In this document: positions 2,635 to 13,347 of the stretch, one piece after another
Position numbering within the stretch: position 1 is the stretch's first letter
How the letters are laid out: every line of letters starts with the position of its first letter
Source: a virus
Direction: 5' to 3' (one strand)
Virus genome (UHGV): UHGV-0358078
DNA: 13,471 bases
The notes under the pieces: generated by a model
The model's input: only the letters and a program-made list of their open reading frames with translations
Told to the model about the DNA's origin: nothing
Databases searched by the model: none
Translations under genes and position numbers: made by a program

Positions 2635-2656
2635 GTGAGAGTTCAGCTACTCTCAC
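2635..2656 (+). other. Hairpin without downstream U-tract, upstream of the SD of gene 2686
   Basis: GTGAGAG (2635-2641) / CTCTCAC (2650-2656), 8-nt loop; followed by ttaaccaaacc, not a T-run. Confidence 0.45.
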
Positions 2657-2685
2657 TTAACCAAACCATTTTAGGAGCATATACC

Positions 2686-3180
2686 ATGAACTTCACTAGA
2701 CTTGATTACACTAACGAATTGGTTGACAAAGAAAAATACAAATTCACTGTTGACTTGGGTTACGGATTACTGGACGTAGAAAAAGATGTTCTGCACAAAG
2801 AATTCCGTGAGCAATTCGGTGCTTTGTTCTGCGCAGGTTTCCGCAGAAACACCATTGATATCGGTTATAGCGCAACAGCGTATACCGATGAAGAAATGTT
2901 TAAGCTGGTAACACAGATTGTCGGAACGCGTGGAGCCAAACGACTCAATTATTCCAACGAACTTGTTTCGAAAGAACATTACAAGTTCACCGTTAGACTA
3001 CCTGTTCGCCTCACAGAAGAAGATAAGAACATCCTCTATAAAGCCCTTCAAACCGAATTCGGTAAAGCGCTCAAAGTAGGGTTCCGTAATCGTAGTATCG
3101 ATATCGGAATTAGTGTGGATGTGTGTAGTGACGATGACCTTTACGAATTAGTTTCGGAAGTTATCGGAAAACATCTCTAA
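2686..3180 (+). CDS. Hypothetical protein (164 aa) built from two tandem ~76-aa repeats
   Basis: ORF track starts at GTG 2635 inside a hairpin; the in-frame ATG at 2686 has AGGAG (2673-2677) with an 8-nt spacer. Residues 5-80 and 86-161 align colinearly (RLDYTNELVDKEKYKFTV... vs RLNYSNELVSKEHYKFTV...; ...NTIDIGYS... vs ...RSIDIGIS...). Confidence 0.75.
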   Translation: MNFTRLDYTNELVDKEKYKFTVDLGYGLLDVEKDVLHKEFREQFGALFCAGFRRNTIDIGYSATAYTDEEMFKLVTQIVGTRGAKRLNYSNELVSKEHYKFTVRLPVRLTEEDKNILYKALQTEFGKALKVGFRNRSIDIGISVDVCSDDDLYELVSEVIGKHL

Positions 3181-3220: not shown

Positions 3221-3694
3221 ATGTTTAGCTTAGAAATCAACAACAACGTTCATGCCGCTTTCCATTCAGTAGAAAAAACCTATAAAATTAAAGATCTGTT
3301 TACTGGCAGAAGCGATGCTTTTTCGCTGATTAAGAATGGATGGAGAAAAAGCAAAGAGCTGAAACGTGATTCAAACCTTTACATTATTGAACGTTTAACT
3401 GTAACCGACAACCTTGTCACTGCACGTTATGACTTTGTTGTAATGGACGCTTTCATCCCGTTAGACAAACTGGTTATCTTGGCTGACAATGGGGAACGCT
3501 ACGAGGCGGGCGAGAACGGTGAACGTTCATTTACTAATGACGGTAAACTAAAAGTTCGCCATTCTGTAATGGCAGTTTGCTACGATGGTGAATGGTTAAG
3601 ATCTCTGAATAAAGGATTGGATTTGATTGACGCCGATGATTTAGAAAATTTCGCCGATGTTTTCTCCAACTATTTGTTTGAATATAAGTGGTGA
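3221..3694 (+). CDS. Hypothetical protein (157 aa)
   Basis: ATG at 3221 with AAGGA 7 nt upstream. Contains a short peptide repeat (DNGERY / ENGERS). No recognised domain. Confidence 0.75.
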   Translation: MFSLEINNNVHAAFHSVEKTYKIKDLFTGRSDAFSLIKNGWRKSKELKRDSNLYIIERLTVTDNLVTARYDFVVMDAFIPLDKLVILADNGERYEAGENGERSFTNDGKLKVRHSVMAVCYDGEWLRSLNKGLDLIDADDLENFADVFSNYLFEYKW

Positions 3695-3699
3695 GTTCG

Positions 3700-4131
3700 A
3701 TGAGAAAAGAACTAAAATCAGAGTTACGTGATTACATTCGTAAATACCCAGCCAGTATTCCGGTACTGGCTTCACTCTCTTTATCGGGTATGGACCTTAA
3801 TACCCTAACGGTAGAAAAATTCCACGAAGTGGTGAAGTCGTCGTATCAAATTGTTACCGATATGTCAGTGCGGAAACGTGCTGACTACCCAGACGGTGAT
3901 TTCGGTACAGAGATGTTCACGGACTACGCAGTTGCGTATCTGATGGGACGTCACTTTATCGATAAACTCAATACGGCTGTAGAAGGAGAAACCGTTACGG
4001 AAATTGTCAATGCTTGGCAACAACGTATTGTGAGTGACGCTTACTGTCGTCAAGCCTTAAAGAAAATGTCGGCGGTAGCATTAACCAATGACCAACGTGC
4101 TTTAGAGTTCCTTAAGCACAACTACGAATAA
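3700..4131 (+). CDS. Hypothetical protein (143 aa), paralog of the gene at 4997..5428
   Basis: ORF track starts at GTG 3688; the in-frame ATG at 3700 has a GGTGAG SD-like sequence upstream. Same length as, and colinear with, the protein at 4997 (LKSELRDYIRKYPASIPVLA vs LKDDIRNYIRNNPIALGVLA; ...ADYPDGDFGTEM vs ...EEYPVGELGDTM; ...LEFLKHNYE vs ...LMYLAHNVR). Confidence 0.75.
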   Translation: MRKELKSELRDYIRKYPASIPVLASLSLSGMDLNTLTVEKFHEVVKSSYQIVTDMSVRKRADYPDGDFGTEMFTDYAVAYLMGRHFIDKLNTAVEGETVTEIVNAWQQRIVSDAYCRQALKKMSAVALTNDQRALEFLKHNYE

Positions 4132-4152: not shown

Positions 4153-4920
4153 ATGTTTAATATTGAGATTACCCCACTCGTTAAAACTGAAATCCGTCCG
4201 GTTCCTGAAGCACAGTTACTCGATCAACTTTATCGTATATTCCTGGATAAAGGTGTACATTTCCGTGTAGAGCAGGTCAATGATGAAAGCATCGTGTTCT
4301 ACTGGACTCACAGCAACGATTATCTTTGCGATACTATCGCGAAAGAAATTGGTGAGTTGCTCAACCCAGCAGAAGGTACCACGAACGCCTGGGTAGAAAC
4401 GACCGAGACTGAACAACCGAAAGCCGAGGCCGAAAAACAGCAGAAAGACGAACCGCACGTCCTCTGGTACGAAGGTAAGAAGATTAAGGAAATTAAAGAA
4501 GCGTTAGAGACCCTCTATCACGACGATTTAGGCATTTACTGGGATAACAGCAAGCTCGTCGTTCGATTGAAGAAAGACGATCGTAACCTCATGGAAGATA
4601 TTCGTTCTATCGTTAAGCTGATCGATAACGACGCTGTTCGACTTATTTCGATTCATGGTATCGGAAAAGATACCGCTGATGAACTCATGCGTGTGGCTGT
4701 TCACGAACACAAGGAGAAAATTCATCAATCCGTTTACAAAGGTGAAACGCTCACCGTTTTGATCGACAACGATGTTGAGGTTTTCAAATCATTAACGAAC
4801 CTTTTGCGAAATGTTTCAACGGATTCTTATATCGAAAAAACACGTGCCTTGCTTCTCGAAAAGCTTTTTAATATTTACAACAAAGATTGCGATTGTCCTA
4901 ATTGTCAAAAACGTCGTTAA
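4153..4920 (+). CDS. Hypothetical protein (255 aa) with helix-hairpin-helix-like motif and C-terminal Cys cluster
   Basis: ATG at 4153 with AAGGA upstream. Internal LISIHGIGKDTADELM fits the HhH pattern (hxxhxGhGxxxAxxh) of non-specific DNA-binding modules. Acidic, K/E/Q-rich linker. C-terminal CDCPNC. Followed by a 16-bp palindrome and a terminator. Confidence 0.8.
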   Translation: MFNIEITPLVKTEIRPVPEAQLLDQLYRIFLDKGVHFRVEQVNDESIVFYWTHSNDYLCDTIAKEIGELLNPAEGTTNAWVETTETEQPKAEAEKQQKDEPHVLWYEGKKIKEIKEALETLYHDDLGIYWDNSKLVVRLKKDDRNLMEDIRSIVKLIDNDAVRLISIHGIGKDTADELMRVAVHEHKEKIHQSVYKGETLTVLIDNDVEVFKSLTNLLRNVSTDSYIEKTRALLLEKLFNIYNKDCDCPNCQKRR

Positions 4921-4996: not shown

Positions 4997-5428
4997 ATGT
5001 TTTTCGTATTAAAAGATGATATCCGTAACTACATTCGTAACAATCCGATTGCGCTGGGCGTTTTAGCAGGTTTCTGTCGTCCAAATACTGACTTCGATTT
5101 AGTTAAGTTAGAAGAATATCAAGAAATTGTGAACACTACCTACATGCACATCTGTAGCTGGGGTAAACGTCCTCGTGAAGAGTACCCTGTGGGTGAGTTA
5201 GGTGACACCATGCACCGTGACCAGAACCTGATGCACGAATTCGTTGAATACACACTGGAAAATCTTAACTATCCGCTCCTGGTCGACACTGTACCAGAAA
5301 TGGTTGACGAATGGTTTAAACGTGTTTATAGCGATCCTACCGCCAACAAGTTACTGAACCAGATGTCACAAACTTCTCGTGACATCGACACTCGTACGCT
5401 GATGTACTTAGCACACAACGTTCGCTAA
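4997..5428 (+). CDS. Hypothetical protein (143 aa), paralog of the gene at 3700..4131
   Basis: ATG at 4997 with AGGAG inside the conserved 16-nt block 4980-4995. Paralogy to 3700..4131 described there. Followed by a strong UUCG-tetraloop terminator. Confidence 0.8.
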   Translation: MFFVLKDDIRNYIRNNPIALGVLAGFCRPNTDFDLVKLEEYQEIVNTTYMHICSWGKRPREEYPVGELGDTMHRDQNLMHEFVEYTLENLNYPLLVDTVPEMVDEWFKRVYSDPTANKLLNQMSQTSRDIDTRTLMYLAHNVR

Positions 5429-5435
5429 CCTCTCT

Positions 5436-5490
5436 CCGCTATAGGCTTCGGTCTATAGCGGAATTAATTTTCTTTCCCTTTTCTTTTTTT
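5436..5490 (+). terminator. Intrinsic terminator, 11-bp stem with UUCG tetraloop
   Basis: ccgctataggc (5436-5446), loop ttcg (5447-5450), gtctatagcgg (5451-5461), one G-U pair. Followed by a long T-rich tract (…ttttctttcccttttctttttttt). Lies 8 nt after the stop of gene 4997..5428. Confidence 0.8.
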
Positions 5491-5597: not shown

Positions 5598-6446
5598 ATG
5601 TCTCTTACGTCAAAACAGAAACTGCTAAAACTCATCAACACTGAAAACAATATTAGTCCACCGTTGACTTTCAGTGATGTTGATATCGGAGAACCTACTG
5701 GTACTGGGGTTGATACCCAGGTGGTTCTGACCTCTAAACTCAAAGGCGATGAGTCTACTACTTTAACAGTGACTTACCACCGTCGTAACTTACCTGACTA
5801 CCTAACAGGTGAGTTGGTATTCGGTAACGACAATGTGGTAACCGCATCCGATTTGCTTAATGCGATTAACGCAAAATACAACCTAAATATTTTACCCTCG
5901 GATATCGTTGACGCAAAAGTTGAAGGTGAAACCCATCAGCTTACCGCTAACGAGAAATCTTACGAGTGGTGCGGTGTAGTAACACTTACGCTGCGTGATC
6001 CTATTGACCTGACTGAACTGTTACCAGTTACTCAATTAGAGAATCTGGTAGAGTATCCGTCTACTAAGAAAGGTAACGCTGCGGTTTATTCTCACCCGAT
6101 TGATTTCACCGCAGAAAAAGATTACCTTGACCCGATTACTATCAACGACACCGTCGACTTAGTAGAGTTAGCCACTAAACTGGCTAACGTCGTTGATGAG
6201 AAATGGGTAAGTGTACCTAAAAACGCGGCTAACAACCTGTACGGTGCTAAAGTTATTTACGATGGCCCAACCGCAGGTTACGAAGGCGCAAATACGAAGT
6301 TCACTCGTGTGCTGGTACTGACTCTCAGCCCGTTGTGTTCTAACCTGACCGGTAATCTGTTAATCCACTTTAACGGTACCGATCGTCCGAAGTCGAAGAT
6401 TGAATTAGCACAGACTAATCCGGTCTTACCGGGATTCTTAGATTAA
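5598..6446 (+). CDS. Paralog-family protein (282 aa), possible virion/structural protein
   Basis: First ATG after a 169-nt intergenic region; weak SD (GTGAG). N-terminal ~70 aa (…LINTENNISPPLTFSDVDIGEPTG…TQVVLTSKLKGDESTTLTVTYHRRNL) is colinear with the N-termini of the genes at 6460, 9626 and 10234. T/V/N-rich, acidic composition. The structural role is inference only. Confidence 0.8.
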   Translation: MSLTSKQKLLKLINTENNISPPLTFSDVDIGEPTGTGVDTQVVLTSKLKGDESTTLTVTYHRRNLPDYLTGELVFGNDNVVTASDLLNAINAKYNLNILPSDIVDAKVEGETHQLTANEKSYEWCGVVTLTLRDPIDLTELLPVTQLENLVEYPSTKKGNAAVYSHPIDFTAEKDYLDPITINDTVDLVELATKLANVVDEKWVSVPKNAANNLYGAKVIYDGPTAGYEGANTKFTRVLVLTLSPLCSNLTGNLLIHFNGTDRPKSKIELAQTNPVLPGFLD

Positions 6447-6459
6447 GAGGATTACAGTA

Positions 6460-6957
6460 ATGACCAATCAAGAAACTATCTTCGACCTTATTAAAAAGGC
6501 TAACCCAGACGCTGAGTTCGACACCACCAAGGTCACGCTGGGTGACCCGGTCGTAACCACCGGTACGTACAATACCGAAATCACAGTTGCGTCAATTAAG
6601 AATCTCGGTTACACTAACGAACAAACGTTCCAGTATAACCGCATTGACGCAGGTTTGTATTTCCTGAACGTATTACCGAAACTGTTAGTGGAGTCTGCAA
6701 CGACTACCGCTGACTTACTGCCCGTAATTAACGAACAGTACAGCCTAACCCTTACAGAAGACGATGTATGGGTAGAACAGGTCGGTGAATTACCGCTGGA
6801 CGGCAGTGCAATCGAGCACGGCATTTTCTTCCGTCCTGAATGTTTAACCTGGGTAGGCGGTTTTACGGTGCGCGTTGCACGTAAACCTGCTGAAGATGTT
6901 GAACCTGCGCCAAAAGCAGCTAAAGCACGTACAACTCGTGCACGAAAATCCAAGTAA
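6460..6957 (+). CDS. Paralog-family protein (165 aa) with basic, A/K/R-rich C-terminal tail
   Basis: ATG at 6460 with AAGAGGA upstream. N-terminus (…LIKKANPDAEFDTTKVTLGDPVVT…NTEITVASIKNLGYTNEQTFQYNRID) matches the family motif. C-terminal PAPKAAKARTTRARKSK. Followed by a strong terminator. Confidence 0.8.
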   Translation: MTNQETIFDLIKKANPDAEFDTTKVTLGDPVVTTGTYNTEITVASIKNLGYTNEQTFQYNRIDAGLYFLNVLPKLLVESATTTADLLPVINEQYSLTLTEDDVWVEQVGELPLDGSAIEHGIFFRPECLTWVGGFTVRVARKPAEDVEPAPKAAKARTTRARKSK

Positions 6958-6960
6958 GAT

Positions 6961-6998
6961 TTGGGTGGGGTAAAACCCACCCAACGTTTTTCTTTTTT
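6961..6998 (+). terminator. Intrinsic terminator
   Basis: Perfect 9-bp stem ttgggtggg (6961-6969) / cccacccaa (6976-6984), 6-nt loop, then cgtttttcttttttg. Starts 4 nt after the stop of gene 6460..6957. Confidence 0.85.
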
Positions 6999-7021
6999 GT
7001 GTAAAATGGGAGTTAAACAAA

Positions 7022-7612
7022 ATGGCTGAACGTTGGACTAAAGAAGGTATTATTGAAACCAAAACGGATTTAGAAGGCGGGTACGTCAACGACCCTGACG
7101 ACTTAGGTGCAGAAACGAACCACGGTATCACGGTAACGACTGCACGTGAGTACGGTTATAAAGGGAAAATGAAAGACCTTACCCGTGCTCAAGCTTTTGA
7201 CATTTACGATCGTGGTTGGTGGAAGAAACTCAAACTCGATGAGATTTTCGCTATCTCGCCTTTACTGGCTGACCGGATGTTTGATTTCGGAATTAACGCA
7301 GGTCGTGCCAACTGCGTGAAATCGCTACAGCGTATTCTCAACGTGTTGAACAACGAAGGTAAACTCTACGCGGACATCGATGCTGACGGTGGAATGGGGC
7401 CTAAAACGCTGGGTGCGTTGAACGCGTACCTGAAATACCGTAAAGATGAAGGGCTAAGCATTTTAATCTTTGCGTTAATCTCGCACCAAGTAACTTACTA
7501 CACGGAAATCTCCGAGAAACGTAAGCGAAACGAGAAATACACCTACGGCTGGTACGGCCGCGTGTTCAGAGAAATGGCAGATTATGCGGTAAAAGCGGGG
7601 TTAGTAAAATGA
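7022..7612 (+). CDS. Endolysin, GH108-type N-terminal domain plus PG_binding_3-like C-terminal domain
   Basis: ATG at 7022 with GGGAG upstream. N-terminal EGGYVNDPDDLGAETNHGIT matches the GH108 signature (EGGY…DPxD…GGxTxxGIT). Downstream FDFGINAGR…LQRIL…DADGGMGPKTLGAL matches the usual C-terminal peptidoglycan-binding domain of this family. No N-terminal signal or SAR segment. Confidence 0.85.
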   Translation: MAERWTKEGIIETKTDLEGGYVNDPDDLGAETNHGITVTTAREYGYKGKMKDLTRAQAFDIYDRGWWKKLKLDEIFAISPLLADRMFDFGINAGRANCVKSLQRILNVLNNEGKLYADIDADGGMGPKTLGALNAYLKYRKDEGLSILIFALISHQVTYYTEISEKRKRNEKYTYGWYGRVFREMADYAVKAGLVK

Positions 7613-7713
7613 ACTGGTTTGCTAAACTCTTAGCGTTATTGTGGAAAGCGTTAACGTCTGGTCGAAAACGTAAAGACGAAAAACGTGGGCAAGAATTCTT
7701 CTGGTTTTTGTAA
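7609..7713 (+). CDS. Candidate small ORF (34 aa), amphipathic N-terminus and basic centre; not in the ORF track
   Basis: ATG at 7609 overlaps the endolysin stop (ATGA at 7609-7612); GGGG lies 8 nt upstream. Translation MNWFAKLLALLWKALTSGRKRKDEKRGQEFFWFL, stop TAA 7711-7713. Fills the gap between the endolysin and the next gene. Too short for a conventional transmembrane holin. Confidence 0.35.
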   Translation: MNWFAKLLALLWKALTSGRKRKDEKRGQEFFWFL

Positions 7714-7728
7714 GGAAAGGTGTGGGTA

Positions 7729-8394
7729 ATGGAGAAGCTTCAATATAAACGTTTAGATAATAAGTGGTTTGTATTAACGGAGGATTACCATTATCCGTTT
7801 ACGTTACGTGAGATTTATCACGACCACGTACACTTAGACCGTGCGGTTTATTTAACCGGTGTATTACCTGACACGCAACTGTGGTTAACCGCTCCGAAAG
7901 GGTTCGTTACCGATTTAGCGTCAATTCCTGAACACCTCCAGGGAATTTTCCATCCTGACGGACCGTGGGCACCTGCGGCCTGCATTCACGACTTACTCTA
8001 TCAAAAATGTAACACGGAGCGTAGCTATCCCATGACACCGGGTGGTAACGTTTCGCGTATTATCGATAAAGAGTTCTCTGACTTAACATTCCTTCGTATT
8101 ATGCAGTCGTTGGAAATCTCGCCGTATATCTGCCAAACGTTTTATAAAGCCGTGGCGGAGTTCGGTTGGGATGCTTACGTAGACCCTAACGCGAAGCCGT
8201 CTTATACCACTAACGACTACCGTACGTTAGATTACAATCGAAACTATTTGTTCGTTCGCGAGTTTAAGGAACCCGCTATTCCTGACCACGAACGTGTTGA
8301 TATCACCACAGGTTGTCCCGTTAATGTCAAATACCTGAACATCAAACGGGCTTTTCTGTCTGGGAGGGAAGATGTTTCATCCAAATCCGAGTAA
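7729..8394 (+). CDS. DUF1353-like protein (221 aa)
   Basis: ORF track starts at GTG 7720; the in-frame ATG at 7729 follows AAGGAAAGGTG. GFVTDLASIP…ACIHDLLY resembles the (G)xxTDxASIP…HDxxY signature I associate with DUF1353; recalled from memory, not searched. No hydrophobic segment. Confidence 0.7.
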   Translation: MEKLQYKRLDNKWFVLTEDYHYPFTLREIYHDHVHLDRAVYLTGVLPDTQLWLTAPKGFVTDLASIPEHLQGIFHPDGPWAPAACIHDLLYQKCNTERSYPMTPGGNVSRIIDKEFSDLTFLRIMQSLEISPYICQTFYKAVAEFGWDAYVDPNAKPSYTTNDYRTLDYNRNYLFVREFKEPAIPDHERVDITTGCPVNVKYLNIKRAFLSGREDVSSKSE

Positions 8395-8887
8395 CTTTAA
8401 ACTCAAAGAGTTAGTACCACAATCGTACATCGCCAAATACGGTGATTCTGCAATTCGGTTTATGAACCCGTTGTTAATGATTTCGCTACAACAGATTCGT
8501 AACCGTTTCGGCAGAATGGTGATTAACTCCTCTGCTGCGCAACAGCGTGGCCTAAGAACCTTAGACTTTTTCATCAACCAAGAAAAGCCTAAGGGTGGTA
8601 ACTATAAACAACGTGCTTTACAACTCTACTCTGATTCAGGGAGTCAGCACAAGTTCGGTAATGCGTTTGACGCAACGCTTTTAGATTCGACAGTAAAACA
8701 AGTCCACGACTATATCGCCGCTAATCCTGACGAATTTCCGTTCATTCACTTTATCGAATGCGACATCAGTTGGTTACATATCGACGTTCGTAACCAACCG
8801 AATATCACGTTCTGGTCACCGAATCGCGGTACTGTGAAAGTCGTGAAACAAAGCCCTATCGATTGGAGCGCCTTAGTTAAAATCTAA
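8372..8887 (+). CDS. Peptidase M15-like (LAS-type zinc peptidase), putative peptidoglycan peptidase
   Basis: ATG at 8372 directly after GGGAGGG; overlaps the upstream gene by 23 nt. SQHKFGNAFD matches the SxHxxGxAxD zinc-ligand motif of M15/VanY-like peptidases, and WLHIDVR resembles the second His motif (xHVDVR). Followed by a palindrome and a bidirectional terminator. Confidence 0.7.
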   Translation: MFHPNPSNFKLKELVPQSYIAKYGDSAIRFMNPLLMISLQQIRNRFGRMVINSSAAQQRGLRTLDFFINQEKPKGGNYKQRALQLYSDSGSQHKFGNAFDATLLDSTVKQVHDYIAANPDEFPFIHFIECDISWLHIDVRNQPNITFWSPNRGTVKVVKQSPIDWSALVKI

Positions 8888-8939
8888 GCGCATAATCCTT
8901 AACTTAGGGTGATTATACCTTATTTTGTATAAACCGTCT

Positions 8940-8953
8940 TAGAACGCGTTCTA
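8940..8953. repeat. Perfect 14-bp palindrome TAGAACGCGTTCTA in the convergent intergenic region
   Basis: Positions 8940-8953 are self-complementary; followed by gcgcgtttt and then the bidirectional terminator at 8979-9003. Confidence 0.8.
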
Positions 8954-8978
8954 GCGCGTTTTACGGACAAAATAAACC

Positions 8979-9003
8979 TACCCTCCTGCTAAGCAGGAGG
9001 GTA
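8979..9003. terminator. Bidirectional terminator between convergent genes
   Basis: Stem taccctcctgc (8979-8989) / gcaggagggta (8993-9003) with a 3-5 nt loop. A/T-rich on both sides (aaataaacc upstream, tttattatt downstream), so it is followed by a U-tract in either direction. Confidence 0.75.
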
Positions 9004-9007
9004 TTTA

Positions 9008-9487
9008 TTATTCTACCGGGTGCAGCATAGTTCCGGTGTCTGGGATACTGCCTTCGTGACATCTGAAGAACGTTACGCCTTTACCTTCACCCGTTTTGTA
9101 GTTGACGGTGGAATACGCAAACGTTGGGGTTTTCGACAGTAACCCGTTTACACGGTAATAGCGCTCACCGGTAACGACGTTTAAGTTACCGTCCACCTTA
9201 CCTAACAGGTCTTTATAAAGTTGCGGAGATTCAATTTTACCTTCGTCCCATGTAGCGACCCAATTCGCCCCTGTATCCATGACTAACACCGAAAGGGGCA
9301 TCAGTTTTAGGCTAGACGGTACCGGTTTAAAATCAGCGAATTCTTGAGAAGCACCTGTACAGGTGTAAATGACCATATCGTGTTGGTCAACAGGTACGGT
9401 GGAGAACTGACCTTCTGCGTTCGGCTGAATAGCACAACCTGCCAATGTCATTACAAAAGCAACGACCACGAGAATGCGTTTTAGCAT
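9008..9487 (-). CDS. Predicted outer-membrane lipoprotein (159 aa)
   Basis: N-terminus MLKRILVVVAFVMTLAGC has a basic n-region, hydrophobic core and lipobox L-A-G-C, with Ala at +2 (no Asp retention signal). SD-like GGGTGAG upstream on the minus strand. Opposite in orientation to all neighbouring genes and followed by a bidirectional terminator. Confidence 0.8.
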   Translation of the reverse strand: MLKRILVVVAFVMTLAGCAIQPNAEGQFSTVPVDQHDMVIYTCTGASQEFADFKPVPSSLKLMPLSVLVMDTGANWVATWDEGKIESPQLYKDLLGKVDGNLNVVTGERYYRVNGLLSKTPTFAYSTVNYKTGEGKGVTFFRCHEGSIPDTGTMLHPVE

Positions 9488-9625
9488 AATCTCACCCTTA
9501 TTAAAATTAAGAAAAATTATTTTTTCAGGTTAGCGCCTACTGCCAACCGTCATATCTATATTTTAGGAAATGTCTAAAATAACTTTCTTATGCAATCCAC
9601 CCCTACCACTTACGAGGTAAAAAAG
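9488..9625. promoter_or_regulatory. Divergent intergenic region, probable promoter region for the lipoprotein gene (minus) and gene 9626 (plus)
   Basis: 138-nt AT-rich gap between divergently oriented starts. On the minus strand, TTGGCA (plus-strand tgccaa 9541-9546) is followed about 17 nt later by an A-rich -10-like hexamer. This is a weak match, not a confident sigma-70 promoter. Confidence 0.3.
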
Positions 9626-10162
9626 ATGGCTAAAGCCTTCAAACAACAGCTCATCGAAGCTGTAATTGCTAAAAACTCAGACACCGCTTCTAATCTGACG
9701 GTTGGTGATGTCGATTTTGGCGCTGTTGCTGAGTTCAGCGGAGACGCTGGTCGTAACACCAAAATTACGCTGACCGCCAAGGCAGAAAGCCAGAACTTCA
9801 AAGGCGAGAAAGAATTCCATTATATCCGTCTGGCTTCTCAAGACCTGATCGGTGCCAAAGCTTACGAACAAGCCGGTAGCCTCGAACTGGAAAACTCGGT
9901 CATTGTAACCAAACTGAACGAAGAAATGGTTACTAAAGGTTATGTCGATGACGAGTTTGCAGAGAGCGAACTGTCCATTGAGAAAACTGACGGGGATAGT
10001 GGTGCTAAAGTTTACACTGTCAAAGTAAGCGAAGGCCACATCAAATTCCTGGCTGGTACCATTGCCACCTTCACTTATTCCAACCCAGCTCCTGAGAAGG
10101 TAGCTCTGGACGGTCTGGAAGGTGAACTTGATGGCTTTACTGCACCGGGTGTCGGTGGCTAA
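9626..10162 (+). CDS. Paralog-family protein (178 aa), possible virion/structural protein
   Basis: ORF track starts at ATG 9590 with no SD. The in-frame ATG at 9626 has GAGG with an 8-nt spacer and gives an N-terminus colinear with the paralog at 10234 (MAKAFKQQLIEAVIAKN… vs MAATNQMMLVALYNAAN…). Both end in ELDGFTA. Followed by a G12-containing hairpin. Confidence 0.8.
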   Translation: MAKAFKQQLIEAVIAKNSDTASNLTVGDVDFGAVAEFSGDAGRNTKITLTAKAESQNFKGEKEFHYIRLASQDLIGAKAYEQAGSLELENSVIVTKLNEEMVTKGYVDDEFAESELSIEKTDGDSGAKVYTVKVSEGHIKFLAGTIATFTYSNPAPEKVALDGLEGELDGFTAPGVGG

Positions 10163-10171
10163 GTAAATTAA

Positions 10172-10198
10172 ATCGGGGGGGGGGGGACCTCCCCCGAT
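10172..10198 (+). terminator. Terminator-like hairpin containing a G12 homopolymer
   Basis: atcgggggggg (10172-10182) pairs with cctcccccgat (10188-10198), one G-U pair; followed by atttctc…tattttt. Starts 10 nt after the stop of gene 9626..10162. Confidence 0.6.
10175..10186. repeat. G12 homopolymer tract
   Basis: Twelve consecutive G at 10175-10186, inside the hairpin after gene 9626..10162. Confidence 0.9.
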
Positions 10199-10233
10199 AT
10201 TTCTCTAACTCGTATTTTTAAGGACCTAAGATA

Positions 10234-10764
10234 ATGGCCGCTACTAACCAGATGATGTTGGTCGCGCTTTATAATGCTGCTAACACTGAGCTACCACATC
10301 AGATTACTGATAAAGAAGTGTCCTTTGGTCTCCCTACTGCGCTGGAAGGCGAAAGTAAGAATACCAAAGTTACCATGACTGCACTACCGGGTTCTGAGAA
10401 TTTCAAAGGCGAAATCGAACTGCATTACGATCGTCTGGAGCCAGGTGTTGTAGGGCGTATTGAACTAACTGACGATCTGTCTCGTTGGGAAGATCAAAAC
10501 GAATTGCGCGCATGGTTACAATATTACATTAATAAAGTTAAACCGGACGATGCTATTCATCCAGCGGACGTTTCTTATTCTACCGAAGACCAGAAAGACG
10601 AACATGAAAACGTCACTCTGCGTACCGTGACGTGCACCGTTACCGAAAAGAACCTCCGTTATAAACCAGGTGTAATGGCAACTTTCGTAATTACACCGAA
10701 GGTTGTTGATAATCGTATTGACCTGGCCACCACCAACGGTGAGTTGGACGGTTTTACTGCTTAA
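10234..10764 (+). CDS. Paralog-family protein (176 aa), possible virion/structural protein
   Basis: ATG at 10234 with AAGGA 9 nt upstream. Shares the family motifs (…VSFGLPTALEGESKNTKVTMTALPGSENFKGEIELHYDRL…) and the C-terminal GELDGFTA. Followed by an 11-bp bidirectional terminator. Confidence 0.8.
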   Translation: MAATNQMMLVALYNAANTELPHQITDKEVSFGLPTALEGESKNTKVTMTALPGSENFKGEIELHYDRLEPGVVGRIELTDDLSRWEDQNELRAWLQYYINKVKPDDAIHPADVSYSTEDQKDEHENVTLRTVTCTVTEKNLRYKPGVMATFVITPKVVDNRIDLATTNGELDGFTA

Positions 10765-10802: not shown

Positions 10803-10829
10803 TACCTACCTCCTTTACGGAGGTAGGTA
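10803..10829. terminator. Bidirectional terminator between convergent genes
   Basis: Perfect 11-bp stem tacctacctcc (10803-10813) / ggaggtaggta (10819-10829), loop tttac. Flanked by aaaaaaataataaattt upstream and tttttattct downstream. Confidence 0.8.
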
Positions 10830-10833
10830 TTTT

Positions 10834-11508
10834 TTATTCTAATCCCATTTCCAGTGCAAGAGCACGGATAGTGTCGTAGTCACGCTGTTCAGCGTACTGA
10901 CGAATTTCACTTTTCTGGGCAGACATCGCGTTGTGTAGCTGTTGGTCACGTTTCACAATAGCCGCCAGCAACGTTTTACATTGTTCCAGCGTAAACGGTT
11001 CTATACGTGTATTCGACGTGTCCAACCAATAATCCGGTGCAGTTTCAGACTGGATATATTGGCCCAGCATCTGACGAGAGGTTTCGTCAGCTTGGAAATG
11101 ACGACCGTCAACTTCGATATAACCGTGACGCTGGTCTTCGTATCGGTGTTCAATTTCCAACATGATTTTCTGGATATCTAAATAGATATAGCGAGACGTC
11201 GAGCGCATATTCGAACGAATCTCATCCAGATCAATCTCCAGAACGTCAGTAATGAATTCTTTTGCTTTATTCAGTGTAAACTTCGACTCGATAGGAGACA
11301 TTTCGTAAGTTTGCATCTGAGCTAAAGCTTCTTCATCACTCATCCCTTCAATCAACTTATAGTGCAGTAAAGCACAGAACCCCGTACGTCCACGGTCTTC
11401 GTTACCTACACGCTCCATGTAGTTACCGTGACGGTCAATTGGGAGATCGTGAGCGAAATAACGCGCTCGAATCTCTTCTTTCGTTAAGCTTTTGTTAGAA
11501 GCAGACAT
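10834..11508 (-). CDS. Hypothetical protein (224 aa), last gene of the radical SAM operon
   Basis: ATG at 11508 (minus) with GGAG 7 nt upstream; overlaps the upstream gene's stop by 25 nt. Stop sits next to the terminator hairpin at 10803-10829. No motif recognised. Confidence 0.75.
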   Translation of the reverse strand: MSASNKSLTKEEIRARYFAHDLPIDRHGNYMERVGNEDRGRTGFCALLHYKLIEGMSDEEALAQMQTYEMSPIESKFTLNKAKEFITDVLEIDLDEIRSNMRSTSRYIYLDIQKIMLEIEHRYEDQRHGYIEVDGRHFQADETSRQMLGQYIQSETAPDYWLDTSNTRIEPFTLEQCKTLLAAIVKRDQQLHNAMSAQKSEIRQYAEQRDYDTIRALALEMGLE

Positions 11509-12050
11509 TCTTCTTCTCCAACCATACCTAATTCTTGCAGCAAGCCAAAATCAATCAACTGGAAGGTTTCAGAGAGATCGTTTGACCACACCACGTTTGC
11601 AATGTCGCGTTCTTCATCCGTTAACTGTGGTAACACATTTTCGTTGAACGTCTGATGCTCTACGTAATACGCATCGTAGATAGACGTGGAACGTAAGCAA
11701 CGGATCGGCATACGCGGGAAAGACACCGCTAATGCAGCAATAGATGCGCTACTCGGATTCTCCGCAGAATAACGAAGCAATTCGATCTTGTGGCGTGGAT
11801 AGTCCAGTACGCGTTGCTCGAAACCCGGATTACGTTTTTCGATTTCCACAACGGACTCATGGCCTGTTTCTGTACAGTAAACGGGAATCATCACGTTTAG
11901 CCCGTACTTAATTAACAGGGGTTTAATCTCATCTGTAAAGTCTTCGCCGGGGATAATGGCGTGGACGTTATAGAGTTTATGTTTGCGCAGAAAACGCTCA
12001 ACCAGGTGGAGTTTACGCTTCGTAAAATTGTGGATCAGAATTGATTTCAT
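11484..12050 (-). CDS. Hypothetical protein (188 aa), radical SAM operon
   Basis: ORF track begins at ATG 12074 with no SD. The in-frame ATG at 12050 is preceded by GAGG with a 6-nt spacer, which also shortens the overlap with the radical SAM gene to 38 nt. No P-loop or PP-loop motif. Function unknown. Confidence 0.7.
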   Translation of the reverse strand: MKSILIHNFTKRKLHLVERFLRKHKLYNVHAIIPGEDFTDEIKPLLIKYGLNVMIPVYCTETGHESVVEIEKRNPGFEQRVLDYPRHKIELLRYSAENPSSASIAALAVSFPRMPIRCLRSTSIYDAYYVEHQTFNENVLPQLTDEERDIANVVWSNDLSETFQLIDFGLLQELGMVGEEECLLLTKA

Positions 12051-13347
12051 TATTTGCCTCAGTAGGTTGTGCATTTAACGCACGTTTAGCTTGCTCACGC
12101 TCACGCGTACATTTCGGACAGTAACAAACAGACGAATCGTGCAGAGACGATGCGTGGACGGTACCCGTACGTTGACGCCAGTATTCTGCCGCCATCAGTT
12201 TTGCAGTCGTCCAACCACATTGACGTCGTTCAGCGTGGTACGCCTTACGGTCTTCCAGTGTCCCTTCACCGTTTTCGTAGGAAGCGGCTGCACAGCTCCC
12301 ACAACCGTGTTTCATCGGACAGCCTAAGCACGTTTCAGGATAGTTGGTGTATTGCGTCTGAATCTCTTCCAGCAGTTTCCCGCCGTCTAAGCTAACAAAC
12401 TCACGACCGACTAACTCAAACACCGCAGAGCGTGACGTTACCGTTGACATGAATCGGTTACAACCATACACCTTACGGTCAAAACCTAAGCAGGTCATAA
12501 ACGTCAACGTCCCACAGAACGGACGTAAACGTTCAGGGTTATAACGGTGCGTGTCGTCGTACAGCAGTTTATCACGCCAATCTGGGTCCCAAATCTGACG
12601 GAAATCCAGACCTTCAGGAATGATGTGGGACAACACGTTACGTGGATTGGTGTGCAGCCCTTTCTCAATCCAATAATCCATCACCTCGATCATCTGCAAC
12701 GCAATATCCGTTGCCATGCTCCGTGGAAGGATATCTTCGTACGTCACGTTACCTGAAATCGTACCGCCACCGGCAATATCAATTAACGACTTCATACTCG
12801 CCGCGTAATGCGGTAAGGTTTCGGTCGTGAAGGTTGCCTTGATACCCAGTTCGGCAATCCCCACTTCTTTTAAGTAGTTATAGCCACGAACGGCGGCTTC
12901 GTAAGAACCCTGACGCGTCGTTGTAAAAATACGATAGCGGTCATGAACTTCTGGCAACCCGTCGATAGACACACCGATGGAGAGTTTGTCTTTCCAACGC
13001 TCAACAATCTCACGGTTTAACGGACGGTCTAACAACGTCCCGTTCGTGGAGATACTGAACATATACGGACGATTATGCTCCTTACACAGCTGTTCTGCGG
13101 TTTCAAACGCCGCTAACAACAGTTTCGGTTGCATAAAAGGTTCGCCACCGATGATATCAATAATGACGTCGATGTTCGGAATATCTTTATCACGCTCAAA
13201 ACAGGCGTGTAAGAAATCCACGATATCCGCCGCTTTGTTATTACGCGGATACTTACGTTCGTAACAATACTCACAATCTAAGTTACAAGACAGGTTCGTT
13301 ACCACCTGGTAAGTACGTTGTGAACGTGGTGCTTCATTATTGCTCAT
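12013..13347 (-). CDS. Radical SAM enzyme with C-terminal SPASM-type Cys-rich domain (anSME-like architecture)
   Basis: CNLDCEYC (CX3CX2C) at residues 21-28; IGGEPF SAM-binding motif; STNGTLL and SIDG…HDRYR motifs typical of SPASM-family radical SAM enzymes. C-terminal clusters CGTLTFMTC…C and CLGCPMKHGCGSC (CX2CX5CX2C), plus a further CYCPKC. ATG at 13347 with AGGA 9 nt upstream and an in-frame stop three codons upstream. Confidence 0.9.
   Translation of the reverse strand: MSNNEAPRSQRTYQVVTNLSCNLDCEYCYERKYPRNNKAADIVDFLHACFERDKDIPNIDVIIDIIGGEPFMQPKLLLAAFETAEQLCKEHNRPYMFSISTNGTLLDRPLNREIVERWKDKLSIGVSIDGLPEVHDRYRIFTTTRQGSYEAAVRGYNYLKEVGIAELGIKATFTTETLPHYAASMKSLIDIAGGGTISGNVTYEDILPRSMATDIALQMIEVMDYWIEKGLHTNPRNVLSHIIPEGLDFRQIWDPDWRDKLLYDDTHRYNPERLRPFCGTLTFMTCLGFDRKVYGCNRFMSTVTSRSAVFELVGREFVSLDGGKLLEEIQTQYTNYPETCLGCPMKHGCGSCAAASYENGEGTLEDRKAYHAERRQCGWTTAKLMAAEYWRQRTGTVHASSLHDSSVCYCPKCTREREQAKRALNAQPTEANNEINSDPQFYEA

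Follow-up and report, generated by a model that had tools for sequence, protein, structure and literature searches.

Nucleus-forming jumbo phages are under development for therapy because they evade many host defences, and the DUF7941 proteins (Pfam PF25613) are among the most abundant and least understood components of their virions. DUF7941 has been described as chimallivirus-specific, and in phage Goslar the estimated copy number per virion is ~2140 for gp23 and ~580 for gp22 (bioRxiv 10.64898/2026.04.21.720040). According to the same preprint, purified Goslar gp22 forms filaments, AlphaFold 3 (AF3) predicts head-to-tail docking of a subunit's linker or C-terminal domain (CTD) onto the N-terminal domain (NTD) of the next subunit, and phiKZ gp127 is partly modelled in the outer peripheral baseplate. 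In SPN3US, whose genes are named here by the original SPN3US numbering, 'paralog family B' (Thomas 2016, Ali 2017) comprises gp83, gp138-154, gp160/161, and gp237. It counts 20-21 members, all of them found in virions by mass spectrometry (PMC5694885, PMC10052503), with gp141 and gp160 belonging to the most abundant proteins of the virion (PMC5694885). The Goslar preprint makes no mention of SPN3US (bioRxiv 10.64898/2026.04.21.720040). We analysed a stretch of 13,471 nucleotides from virus genome UHGV-0358078 (hereafter, the window), which carries two pairs of related genes, A and B, and C and D (Table 1). On sequence evidence, the assignment of their products to DUF7941, and of DUF7941 to the same family as SPN3US paralog family B, is secure; the link between the two names is drawn here. 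The family is already named and recently characterised, and what is new is its members in an uncultured lineage. No new system is described; rather, two bodies of work without mutual citation on this matter are joined.

Pairwise comparisons left the relationship of the four proteins unclear. BLASTP aligned C with D over the full length (28% identity, E 1e-17) and gave marginal matches for A with B (E 9e-4) and for the N-termini of A and D (E 1e-3), while A-C, B-C, and B-D showed no significant pairwise similarity. Profile methods settled the question, and we therefore accept the homology of all four, as had been proposed in a preliminary description of this DNA. The PF25613 profile scored 178.2 bits for A, 98.9 for B, 30.5 for C, and 38.7 for D, all above its gathering score of 27 bits; B, C, and D span only profile positions 7-155 to 7-169 of 276. 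Precomputed PF25613 matches are present on the same genes in identical contigs. In hhalign comparisons, the A-type profile matched the B-type profile with 99.4% probability (E 1e-21) and the C/D-type (gp160-type) profile with 98.4% probability (E 8e-15), and B-type matched C/D-type with 75.9% probability (E 2e-5). C and D also match phrog_4862 (4e-41 and 9e-35, respectively), and when 1.84 billion proteins were searched with a profile built from A-D alone, 1177 cluster representatives were retrieved at E<=1e-3. The view that the similarity is due to chance or composition, or that the open reading frames (ORFs) are non-structural or non-coding, could draw on the three of six BLASTP comparisons that were not significant. 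We give it a negligible probability and consider it refuted by the scores above the curated Pfam cut-off, the hhalign E-values down to 1e-21, confident AlphaFold2 (AF2) models, dN/dS values of 0.04-0.26, and homologs that are virion proteins verified by mass spectrometry.

The N-terminal motifs listed in the preliminary description turned out to be a signature of the family, with the consensus LxxLINxxN, LTxxxVxFGxP, NTxVTxTA, and GxxxxxYNRL in an alignment of 53 sequences, and the ELDGFTA ending it had noted is indeed common to C (aa 167-173) and D (aa 170-176). The N-terminal helix that it called hydrophobic is instead amphipathic (mean Kyte-Doolittle hydropathy from –0.86 to +0.36). Its picture of a four-member family was right about paralogy and too low in number, as a fifth member lies upstream of the window and a close relative carries eight firm members and a weak one (see below). 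No match to PF12699, which covers the inner-body/ejection proteins of SPN3US paralog family A, was found at E<=1 for A-D. Matches to Spiralin (PF05215; 16.5 bits for C and 13.0 for D, gathering threshold 25 bits) and to BACON stayed under threshold and were rejected.

Each of the four proteins has the same globular N-terminal module of ~135 aa, an amphipathic helix followed by a beta-rich domain, with the fold of the phiKZ gp127 NTD. The family architecture of NTD, flexible linker, and optional CTD is found here as well: A has a CTD, and B, C, and D have the module only. The AF2 model of D, built from the 53-sequence alignment, has a mean pLDDT of 94.5 and a pTM of 0.80, with ~90 for the C-terminal tail. 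In the AF2 model of A (41 sequences), pLDDT is ~90 for NTD 1-135, ~93 for CTD 161-260, and 56-62 for linker 140-160, with a C-terminal tail of low confidence; the pTM of 0.47 points to two flexibly arranged domains. In both models the predicted N-terminal helix comprises residues 5-16. A Foldseek search of the D model against the PDB found nothing, while the same model matched 58 predicted viral structures in BFVD at E<=1e-3. The named ones all belong to jumbo phages (Erwinia RAY, EarlPhillipIV, and PhiEaH1; Klebsiella Eowyn; Pseudomonas PhiPA3 and Phabio; a Serratia Moabite 'tail fiber protein'). We also asked whether the CTD partly repeats the ~65 aa at the start of the NTD. The two align in the same register in BLAST (E 0.058) and in hhalign (P 0.0036), but with an hhalign probability of only 9% the repeat is not established.

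Most family members have a short linker or tail peptide of the type DLxxxxT.[ED]L[DN]G[FL] behind the module, and full-length members add a CTD of ~100 aa after it. Among 71 short single-module members, the motif [LIVMF][DNPSTA]G[FLY] occurs after residue 135 in 47 and within the first 135 residues in 4, usually preceded by DLxxxxT; full-length members carry the same motif in the linker as 'T.L.GL.YP'. The linker of A aligns with this linker motif, and hhalign places residues 1-174 of C on residues 1-154 of A. It had seemed possible that ELDGFTA of C and D corresponds to PIDFTA of A (aa 167-172). This was ruled out, as a 28-sequence alignment and hhalign both put the C/D tail on aa 137-154 of A, within its linker. 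By these alignments, ELDGFTA is a family-wide docking-type tail motif and not private to C and D. C and D have one copy each at the C-terminus, and A has a degenerate linker copy and a good C-terminal copy. The latter, the extra tail of A, is shared by A with its close orthologs alone, the other 26 of 28 full-length homologs compared having no such tail; a short-module profile matches residues 238-283 of the A ortholog a second time. B and its orthologs have no tail motif, and their basic C-terminal tail is conserved in the full-length orthologs inspected (e.g. P0026 and P0226).

The tail also stands out in its conservation. The tail of C is nearly invariant between divergent C alleles with variable NTDs, and across 17 D alleles no segment is better conserved than the tail (0.89 versus 0.59 for aa 23-44). 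Within the lineage, the most variable part of C and D alleles is a loop at approximately aa 23-44. Elsewhere in the family, some members carry two tail motifs, and P0142 has five tandem LLPNxDLPGLxY copies after a single module. Many metagenomic proteins have two to three covalently joined modules, tail region included, with a period of ~170 aa; a profile search found up to four matched stretches in one protein (P0032). Such joined modules, or modules fused to a GP38 adhesin plus lectin domains, are seen in P0027, P0034, P0056, and P0109. Fusions of larger family members to GP38 adhesin, Laminin_G_3, a DUF5122 propeller, and SPRY score above the Pfam cut-off. Fusion matches to BNR fall below it, and the Ig_2 match has no stretch that passes alone. 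Taken together, the tail observations fit a donor peptide that binds the next module, although they do not prove it.

A-D are very likely virion proteins, judging by their homologs, and a role in fibres or host interaction appears to be the best current reading. More specifically, we think that they are probably, though far from certainly, DUF7941 subunits of head-to-tail filaments that act at the outer baseplate in host encounter. As in the homologs, synthesis would take place late, and each virion would incorporate tens to thousands of copies. Through its tail or linker, a subunit would dock on the N-terminal module of the next, giving flexible head-to-tail filaments anchored at the outer baseplate. 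These filaments would let the virion reach further when first contacting the host. C and D, with one module and one tail (the type of SPN3US gp160 and Goslar gp23), would be the abundant chain-extending subunits, and A, with the architecture of phiKZ gp127 and Goslar gp22, the full-length unit. B, being a module without a donor tail, would serve only as an acceptor at a chain end. We consider this baseplate-filament model the best supported in view of the phiKZ structure, the Goslar filament data, the receptor-domain fusions, the evidence on the tail motif, and the gene neighbourhood, in which a Gp38_N gene and a 1541-aa tail-fibre gene lie near the DUF7941 locus.

Several points weigh against it. 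In SPN3US, tailless particles filled with DNA and purified heads both yielded the family by mass spectrometry (PMC5105663, PMC5694885, PMC10052503), for which reason all its members were classed as head proteins and labelled 'head ejection?'. The filament model comes from a preprint and combines a single negative-stain experiment with predictions by AF3 and a fit to otherwise unexplained phiKZ density. The simple tail motif is missing from 24 of the 71 short members, the high pLDDT of the D tail in a monomer model is no proof of docking between subunits, and the roles given to A, B, C, and D, proteins of a phage known from sequence alone, are inferred only.

The SPN3US assignment is thus a serious rival to baseplate filaments. 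By this account, the proteins would reside inside or on the capsid, possibly to be ejected with the DNA, and the gp127 copy at the phiKZ baseplate would be exceptional or of minor importance. Every member of SPN3US family B was detected in tailless DNA-filled particles and purified heads, very high copy numbers fit a T=27 head more easily than six baseplate sites, and the Lys/Arg-rich tail of B could bind DNA. On the other hand, the only solved homolog sits on the outer baseplate, and fusions to adhesins and lectins make no sense within a capsid. Cleavage by the prohead protease has been reported for eight SPN3US head proteins, a set that takes in the known ejection proteins gp47, gp53, and gp54 and no member of family B. 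The Goslar capsid reconstruction did not model the DUF7941 proteins. Moreover, micron-long filaments could co-purify with tailless heads. On balance, a head location seems to us rather unlikely, yet it deserves to be taken seriously. The suggestion in the preliminary description of a surface-exposed, fibre, or host-interaction protein is upheld as regards a virion structural family (mass spectrometry in SPN3US and Goslar, phiKZ gp127 in the outer baseplate, receptor-domain fusions), while the location within the virion is contested.

A different possibility is that the proteins are external accessories present as single copies or small oligomers, such as baseplate or collar decorations or tail-fibre adaptors, and form no long polymers. 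The published phiKZ model does build one gp127 NTD per site, filaments have been demonstrated in vitro only for Goslar gp22 and not seen on virions, and the genes adjoin tail-fibre and gp38-like genes. Such an arrangement is hard to square with hundreds to thousands of copies per virion in Goslar and SPN3US, with natural tandem multi-module proteins, and with a conserved donor-type tail, and we regard it as improbable. Going beyond the baseplate-filament model, one may imagine the [ED]L[DN]G[FL]-type tail as an autonomous donor peptide whose copy number per subunit programmes the shape of a fibre network, the set of eight to nine genes being a minimal kit for a self-assembling branched host-capture mesh. 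This is speculative and in our opinion unlikely to be correct. If it were true, zero copies (B, with its basic tail) would end or anchor a chain, one copy (C, D) would extend it, and at least two copies (the linker and C-terminal copies of A; metagenomic members with up to five) would branch it, and diversification would act on the variable loop of C and D (aa 23-44) as the exposed face.

We next consider the lineage that carries these genes. Megablast of the locus against 50,697 phage records gave no match, and it was solely through protein searches and bacterial 'plasmid' records that the lineage came to light. Metagenomes and assemblies of Salmonella, E. coli, and Shigella sonnei contain the same DNA in contigs of ~220-227 kb. 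Complete circular 'plasmid' records with ~94% identity come from E. coli 98232 (NZ_CP173450.1, 221,873 bp) and Enterobacter ludwigii (NZ_CP134650.1). The closest proteins are those of SPN3US-like and phiEaH2-like jumbo phages (~46% identity), and the window is syntenic with SPN3US (Seoulvirus) and phiEaH2. By synteny, it is part of a ~222 kb SPN3US-related jumbo phage of Enterobacteriaceae of the Chimalliviridae type. The lineage is probably 'Bapsvirus', a proposed chimallivirus genus found in bacterial assemblies (PMC12768965).

We scanned the complete genome NZ_CP173450.1 with four family profiles and found eight firm DUF7941 members and one weak match (Table 1); the A ortholog is the only one with a CTD. 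As a control of sensitivity, the same profiles recovered SPN3US gp138-145, 148, 151, 154, 155, and gp160 and missed gp146, 147, 149, 150, 152, and 153. The six that were missed have a different domain, common to the C-terminal parts of gp145, 148, and 151, and no homologs of these six were found in this lineage. In SPN3US, gp145-153 resemble three successive copies of a cassette of three genes (470/332/307, 498/329/299, and 480/332/300 aa; region 121518-131656). The DUF7941 module and an NGELDGF end are present only in the first gene of each cassette; the other two share the different domain and end in ELVE or ELVLP. The fifth DUF7941 gene of our lineage (~170 aa) is located ~1.4 kb upstream of the window start (scaffold L004, 917-1442). 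Its split or frameshifted appearance in that scaffold is an artefact of scaffold Ns, and the gene is intact in NZ_CP173450.1.

The best counterparts of the four proteins differ. A is the ortholog of SPN3US gp138 (46% identity, E 3e-74), B matches aa 7-160, the N-terminal half, of gp141 (37% identity, E 3e-22), and C is the ortholog of gp160 (46% identity, E 8e-43), to which D is more distant (36% identity, E 2e-31). Since the nearest SPN3US gene is a different one for each of A, B, and C, and D branches off more deeply as a paralog, the duplications, as read from these comparisons, are old, and the two pairs are not recent tandem duplicates. In a neighbour-joining tree, C groups with the first gp160-type copy of each phage, and D forms a deep branch. 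The number of gp160-type copies is one in SPN3US, two in phiEaH2, two in the window, and three in ChrisDB, and they always follow a reversed lipoprotein gene. The locus as a whole is contracted rather than expanding, given that A and a truncated B are all that corresponds to the 17-gene array of SPN3US. Thus, the diversification by repeated duplication that had been suggested from the letters of the window holds in so far as the family is paralogous; the comparison of copy number across relatives, with old duplications and a contracted locus, argues against repeated recent duplication.

Twelve genes compared with the E. coli 'plasmid' relative are all under purifying selection (dN/dS 0.01-0.26; 0.04 for B and 0.08 for D). 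C is a hotspot of divergence, with 77% amino acid identity and a dS of 0.53, as opposed to 95-99.8% identity for the 11 neighbouring genes; dS is also elevated for B (0.57). This pattern suggests allele replacement by recombination; the tail of C stays nearly invariant.

Table 1. Features of the DUF7941 locus in the window and DUF7941 members of the related genome NZ_CP173450.1
Feature	Sequence	Coordinates	Strand	Description
Terminator-like hairpin	window	5435..5462	+	12-bp stem, T-rich tail; closes upstream gene, before A
Gene A	window	5598..6446	+	282 aa; full-length DUF7941 protein; ortholog of SPN3US gp138
Gene A layout	window			NTD aa 1-135, linker, CTD aa 161-260, extra C-terminal tail
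A linker	window	6006..6059	+	aa 137-154, DLTELLPVTQLENLVEYP; degenerate copy of family tail/linker motif
A extra C-terminal tail	window	6399..6443	+	aa 268-282, IELAQTNPVLPGFLD; similar to D tail IDLATTNGELDGFTA
Gene B	window	6460..6957	+	165 aa; single DUF7941 N-terminal module, without CTD or tail motif
B basic C-terminal tail	window	6880..6954	+	RKPAEDVEPAPKAAKARTTRARKSK; stands in place of docking-type motif
Terminator-like hairpin	window	6961..6984	+	9-bp GC-rich stem, then CGTTTTTCTTTTTT; after B
GH108/PG_binding_3 endolysin	window	7022-7612		between the two pairs
DUF1353 protein	window	7720-8394		between the two pairs
M15-like or phrog_894 protein	window	8372-8887		between the two pairs
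Terminator-like hairpin	window	8979-9003	bidirectional	
Lipoprotein	window	9008-9487	minus	LAGC lipobox; between the two pairs
Gene C	window	9626..10162	+	178 aa; single-module DUF7941 protein, tail motif at end; ortholog of SPN3US gp160
C tail motif	window	10100..10144	+	VALDGLEGELDGFTA, aa 159-173
G-rich hairpin	window	10172..10198	+	between C and D; G13 run, weak T tail
Gene D	window	10234..10764	+	176 aa; single-module DUF7941 protein, tail motif at end; divergent older paralog of C/gp160
D tail motif	window	10717..10761	+	IDLATTNGELDGFTA, aa 162-176
Terminator-like hairpin	window	10803..10829	bidirectional	11-bp stem, T runs on both strands; between D and convergent DUF4376 gene
Members 1-4	NZ_CP173450.1			orthologs of A, B, C, D (C ortholog 32573-33109)
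Member	NZ_CP173450.1	44085-44597		intact 170-aa gene; adjoins gp38-like (Gp38_N) 'receptor-recognizing protein' and 1541-aa tail-fibre gene (region 45289-50752)
Member	NZ_CP173450.1	54264-54827		adjoins 'phage tail protein'
Member	NZ_CP173450.1	73927-74454		
Member	NZ_CP173450.1	189719-190282		
Weak match	NZ_CP173450.1	69060-69698		

The coordinates and reading frames of A-D in the preliminary description were correct, and its label of a lysis and lipoprotein block between the two pairs is fair, given the four genes found there (Table 1). For C, a GAGG ribosome-binding site precedes the start at 9626, while an in-frame ATG at 9590 lacks one; gene callers also chose the 178-aa form on identical metagenome contigs. 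Antisense ORFs at 6609-6980 and 9677-10039 were treated as shadow ORFs, and no annotation of identical or near-identical DNA calls either. There are two putative peptidoglycan hydrolases, the GH108 endolysin and the M15-like protein, with the DUF1353 gene in between; the DUF1353 ORF and the ORF at 8372 overlap by 23 nt. In SPN3US, the M15-like protein corresponds to gp158, a component of the virion not found in tailless particles, and gp157 is counted among the head proteins. The minus-strand region 10834-13347 encodes a DUF4376 protein, a 188/196-aa ORF, and a radical SAM (4Fe-4S) protein, which are kept directly downstream of the gp160-type genes in SPN3US, phiEaH2, and ChrisDB. Upstream of A, the ORFs at 3688-4131 and 4997-5428 form a second pair of paralogs (147 and 143 aa; 31% identity, E 6e-27) around a 255-aa ORF at 4153-4920, and within the 181-aa ORF at 2635-3180 a unit of ~80 aa is duplicated in tandem (43% identity, E 3e-24).

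Each pair of DUF7941 genes is closed by a terminator-like hairpin, as had been noted, and the two separately expressed units deduced from these hairpins are plausible. C and D are themselves parted by a further hairpin, which could tune the C:D ratio. The G13 run (10176-10188) forms the 5' arm of this hairpin; runs of this kind readily give rise to slippage and sequencing errors. Transcription in these phages relies on their own RNA polymerases. A scan for sigma-70-like sites found no enrichment (4 versus 7.9 in shuffled sequence) and is uninformative.

Because paralog family B and DUF7941 are the same family, the contradiction between a head location and baseplate filaments becomes explicit and testable. 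The naturally reduced set in this lineage, with 8-9 members and a single full-length one, is simpler than that of SPN3US for dissecting the roles of subunits, and the conserved tail peptide and the variable loop provide concrete targets for mutagenesis.

Among the known systems, SPN3US shares with the window the gene order of endolysin, DUF1353, M15-like, minus-strand lipoprotein, gp160-type gene, DUF4376, and radical SAM; the synteny includes gp138, gp141, gp156-160, and the radical SAM genes. It differs in having a tandem array of 17 genes between gp138 and the endolysin, where the window has only A and a truncated B and gp139-155 are without counterparts, in a single gp160-type gene instead of two, and in a gp138 without the extra C-terminal tail of A. 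Goslar has proteins of the same Pfam family at only ~20-28% identity. A has the architecture of Goslar gp22 (NTD, disordered linker, CTD) and matches gp22, gp33, and gp34, whereas C and D have that of gp23 (NTD and linker), which they match at 5e-7 and 2e-9, respectively; in both phages a GH108-type endolysin adjoins the DUF7941 genes. Goslar has ten members, several with large receptor-binding C-terminal parts, and none of A-D has such a domain; of all these proteins, polymerisation is demonstrated only for Goslar gp22. Functionally, though only by analogy, the proposed filaments resemble self-polymerising phage and bacterial fibres, in which, through donor-strand or head-to-tail docking, a short donor peptide completes or binds the next globular domain. 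phiKZ has only ~3 members (gp127, gp126, and gp143 are named), and its gp127 (PDB 9xqd), at 13% identity over the structural alignment, stops at the CTD without the extra tail of A. A matches gp127 in sequence over the linker and CTD (E 2e-5), down to a C-terminal 'LLIHYN' in gp127 that reads 'LLIHFN' in A.

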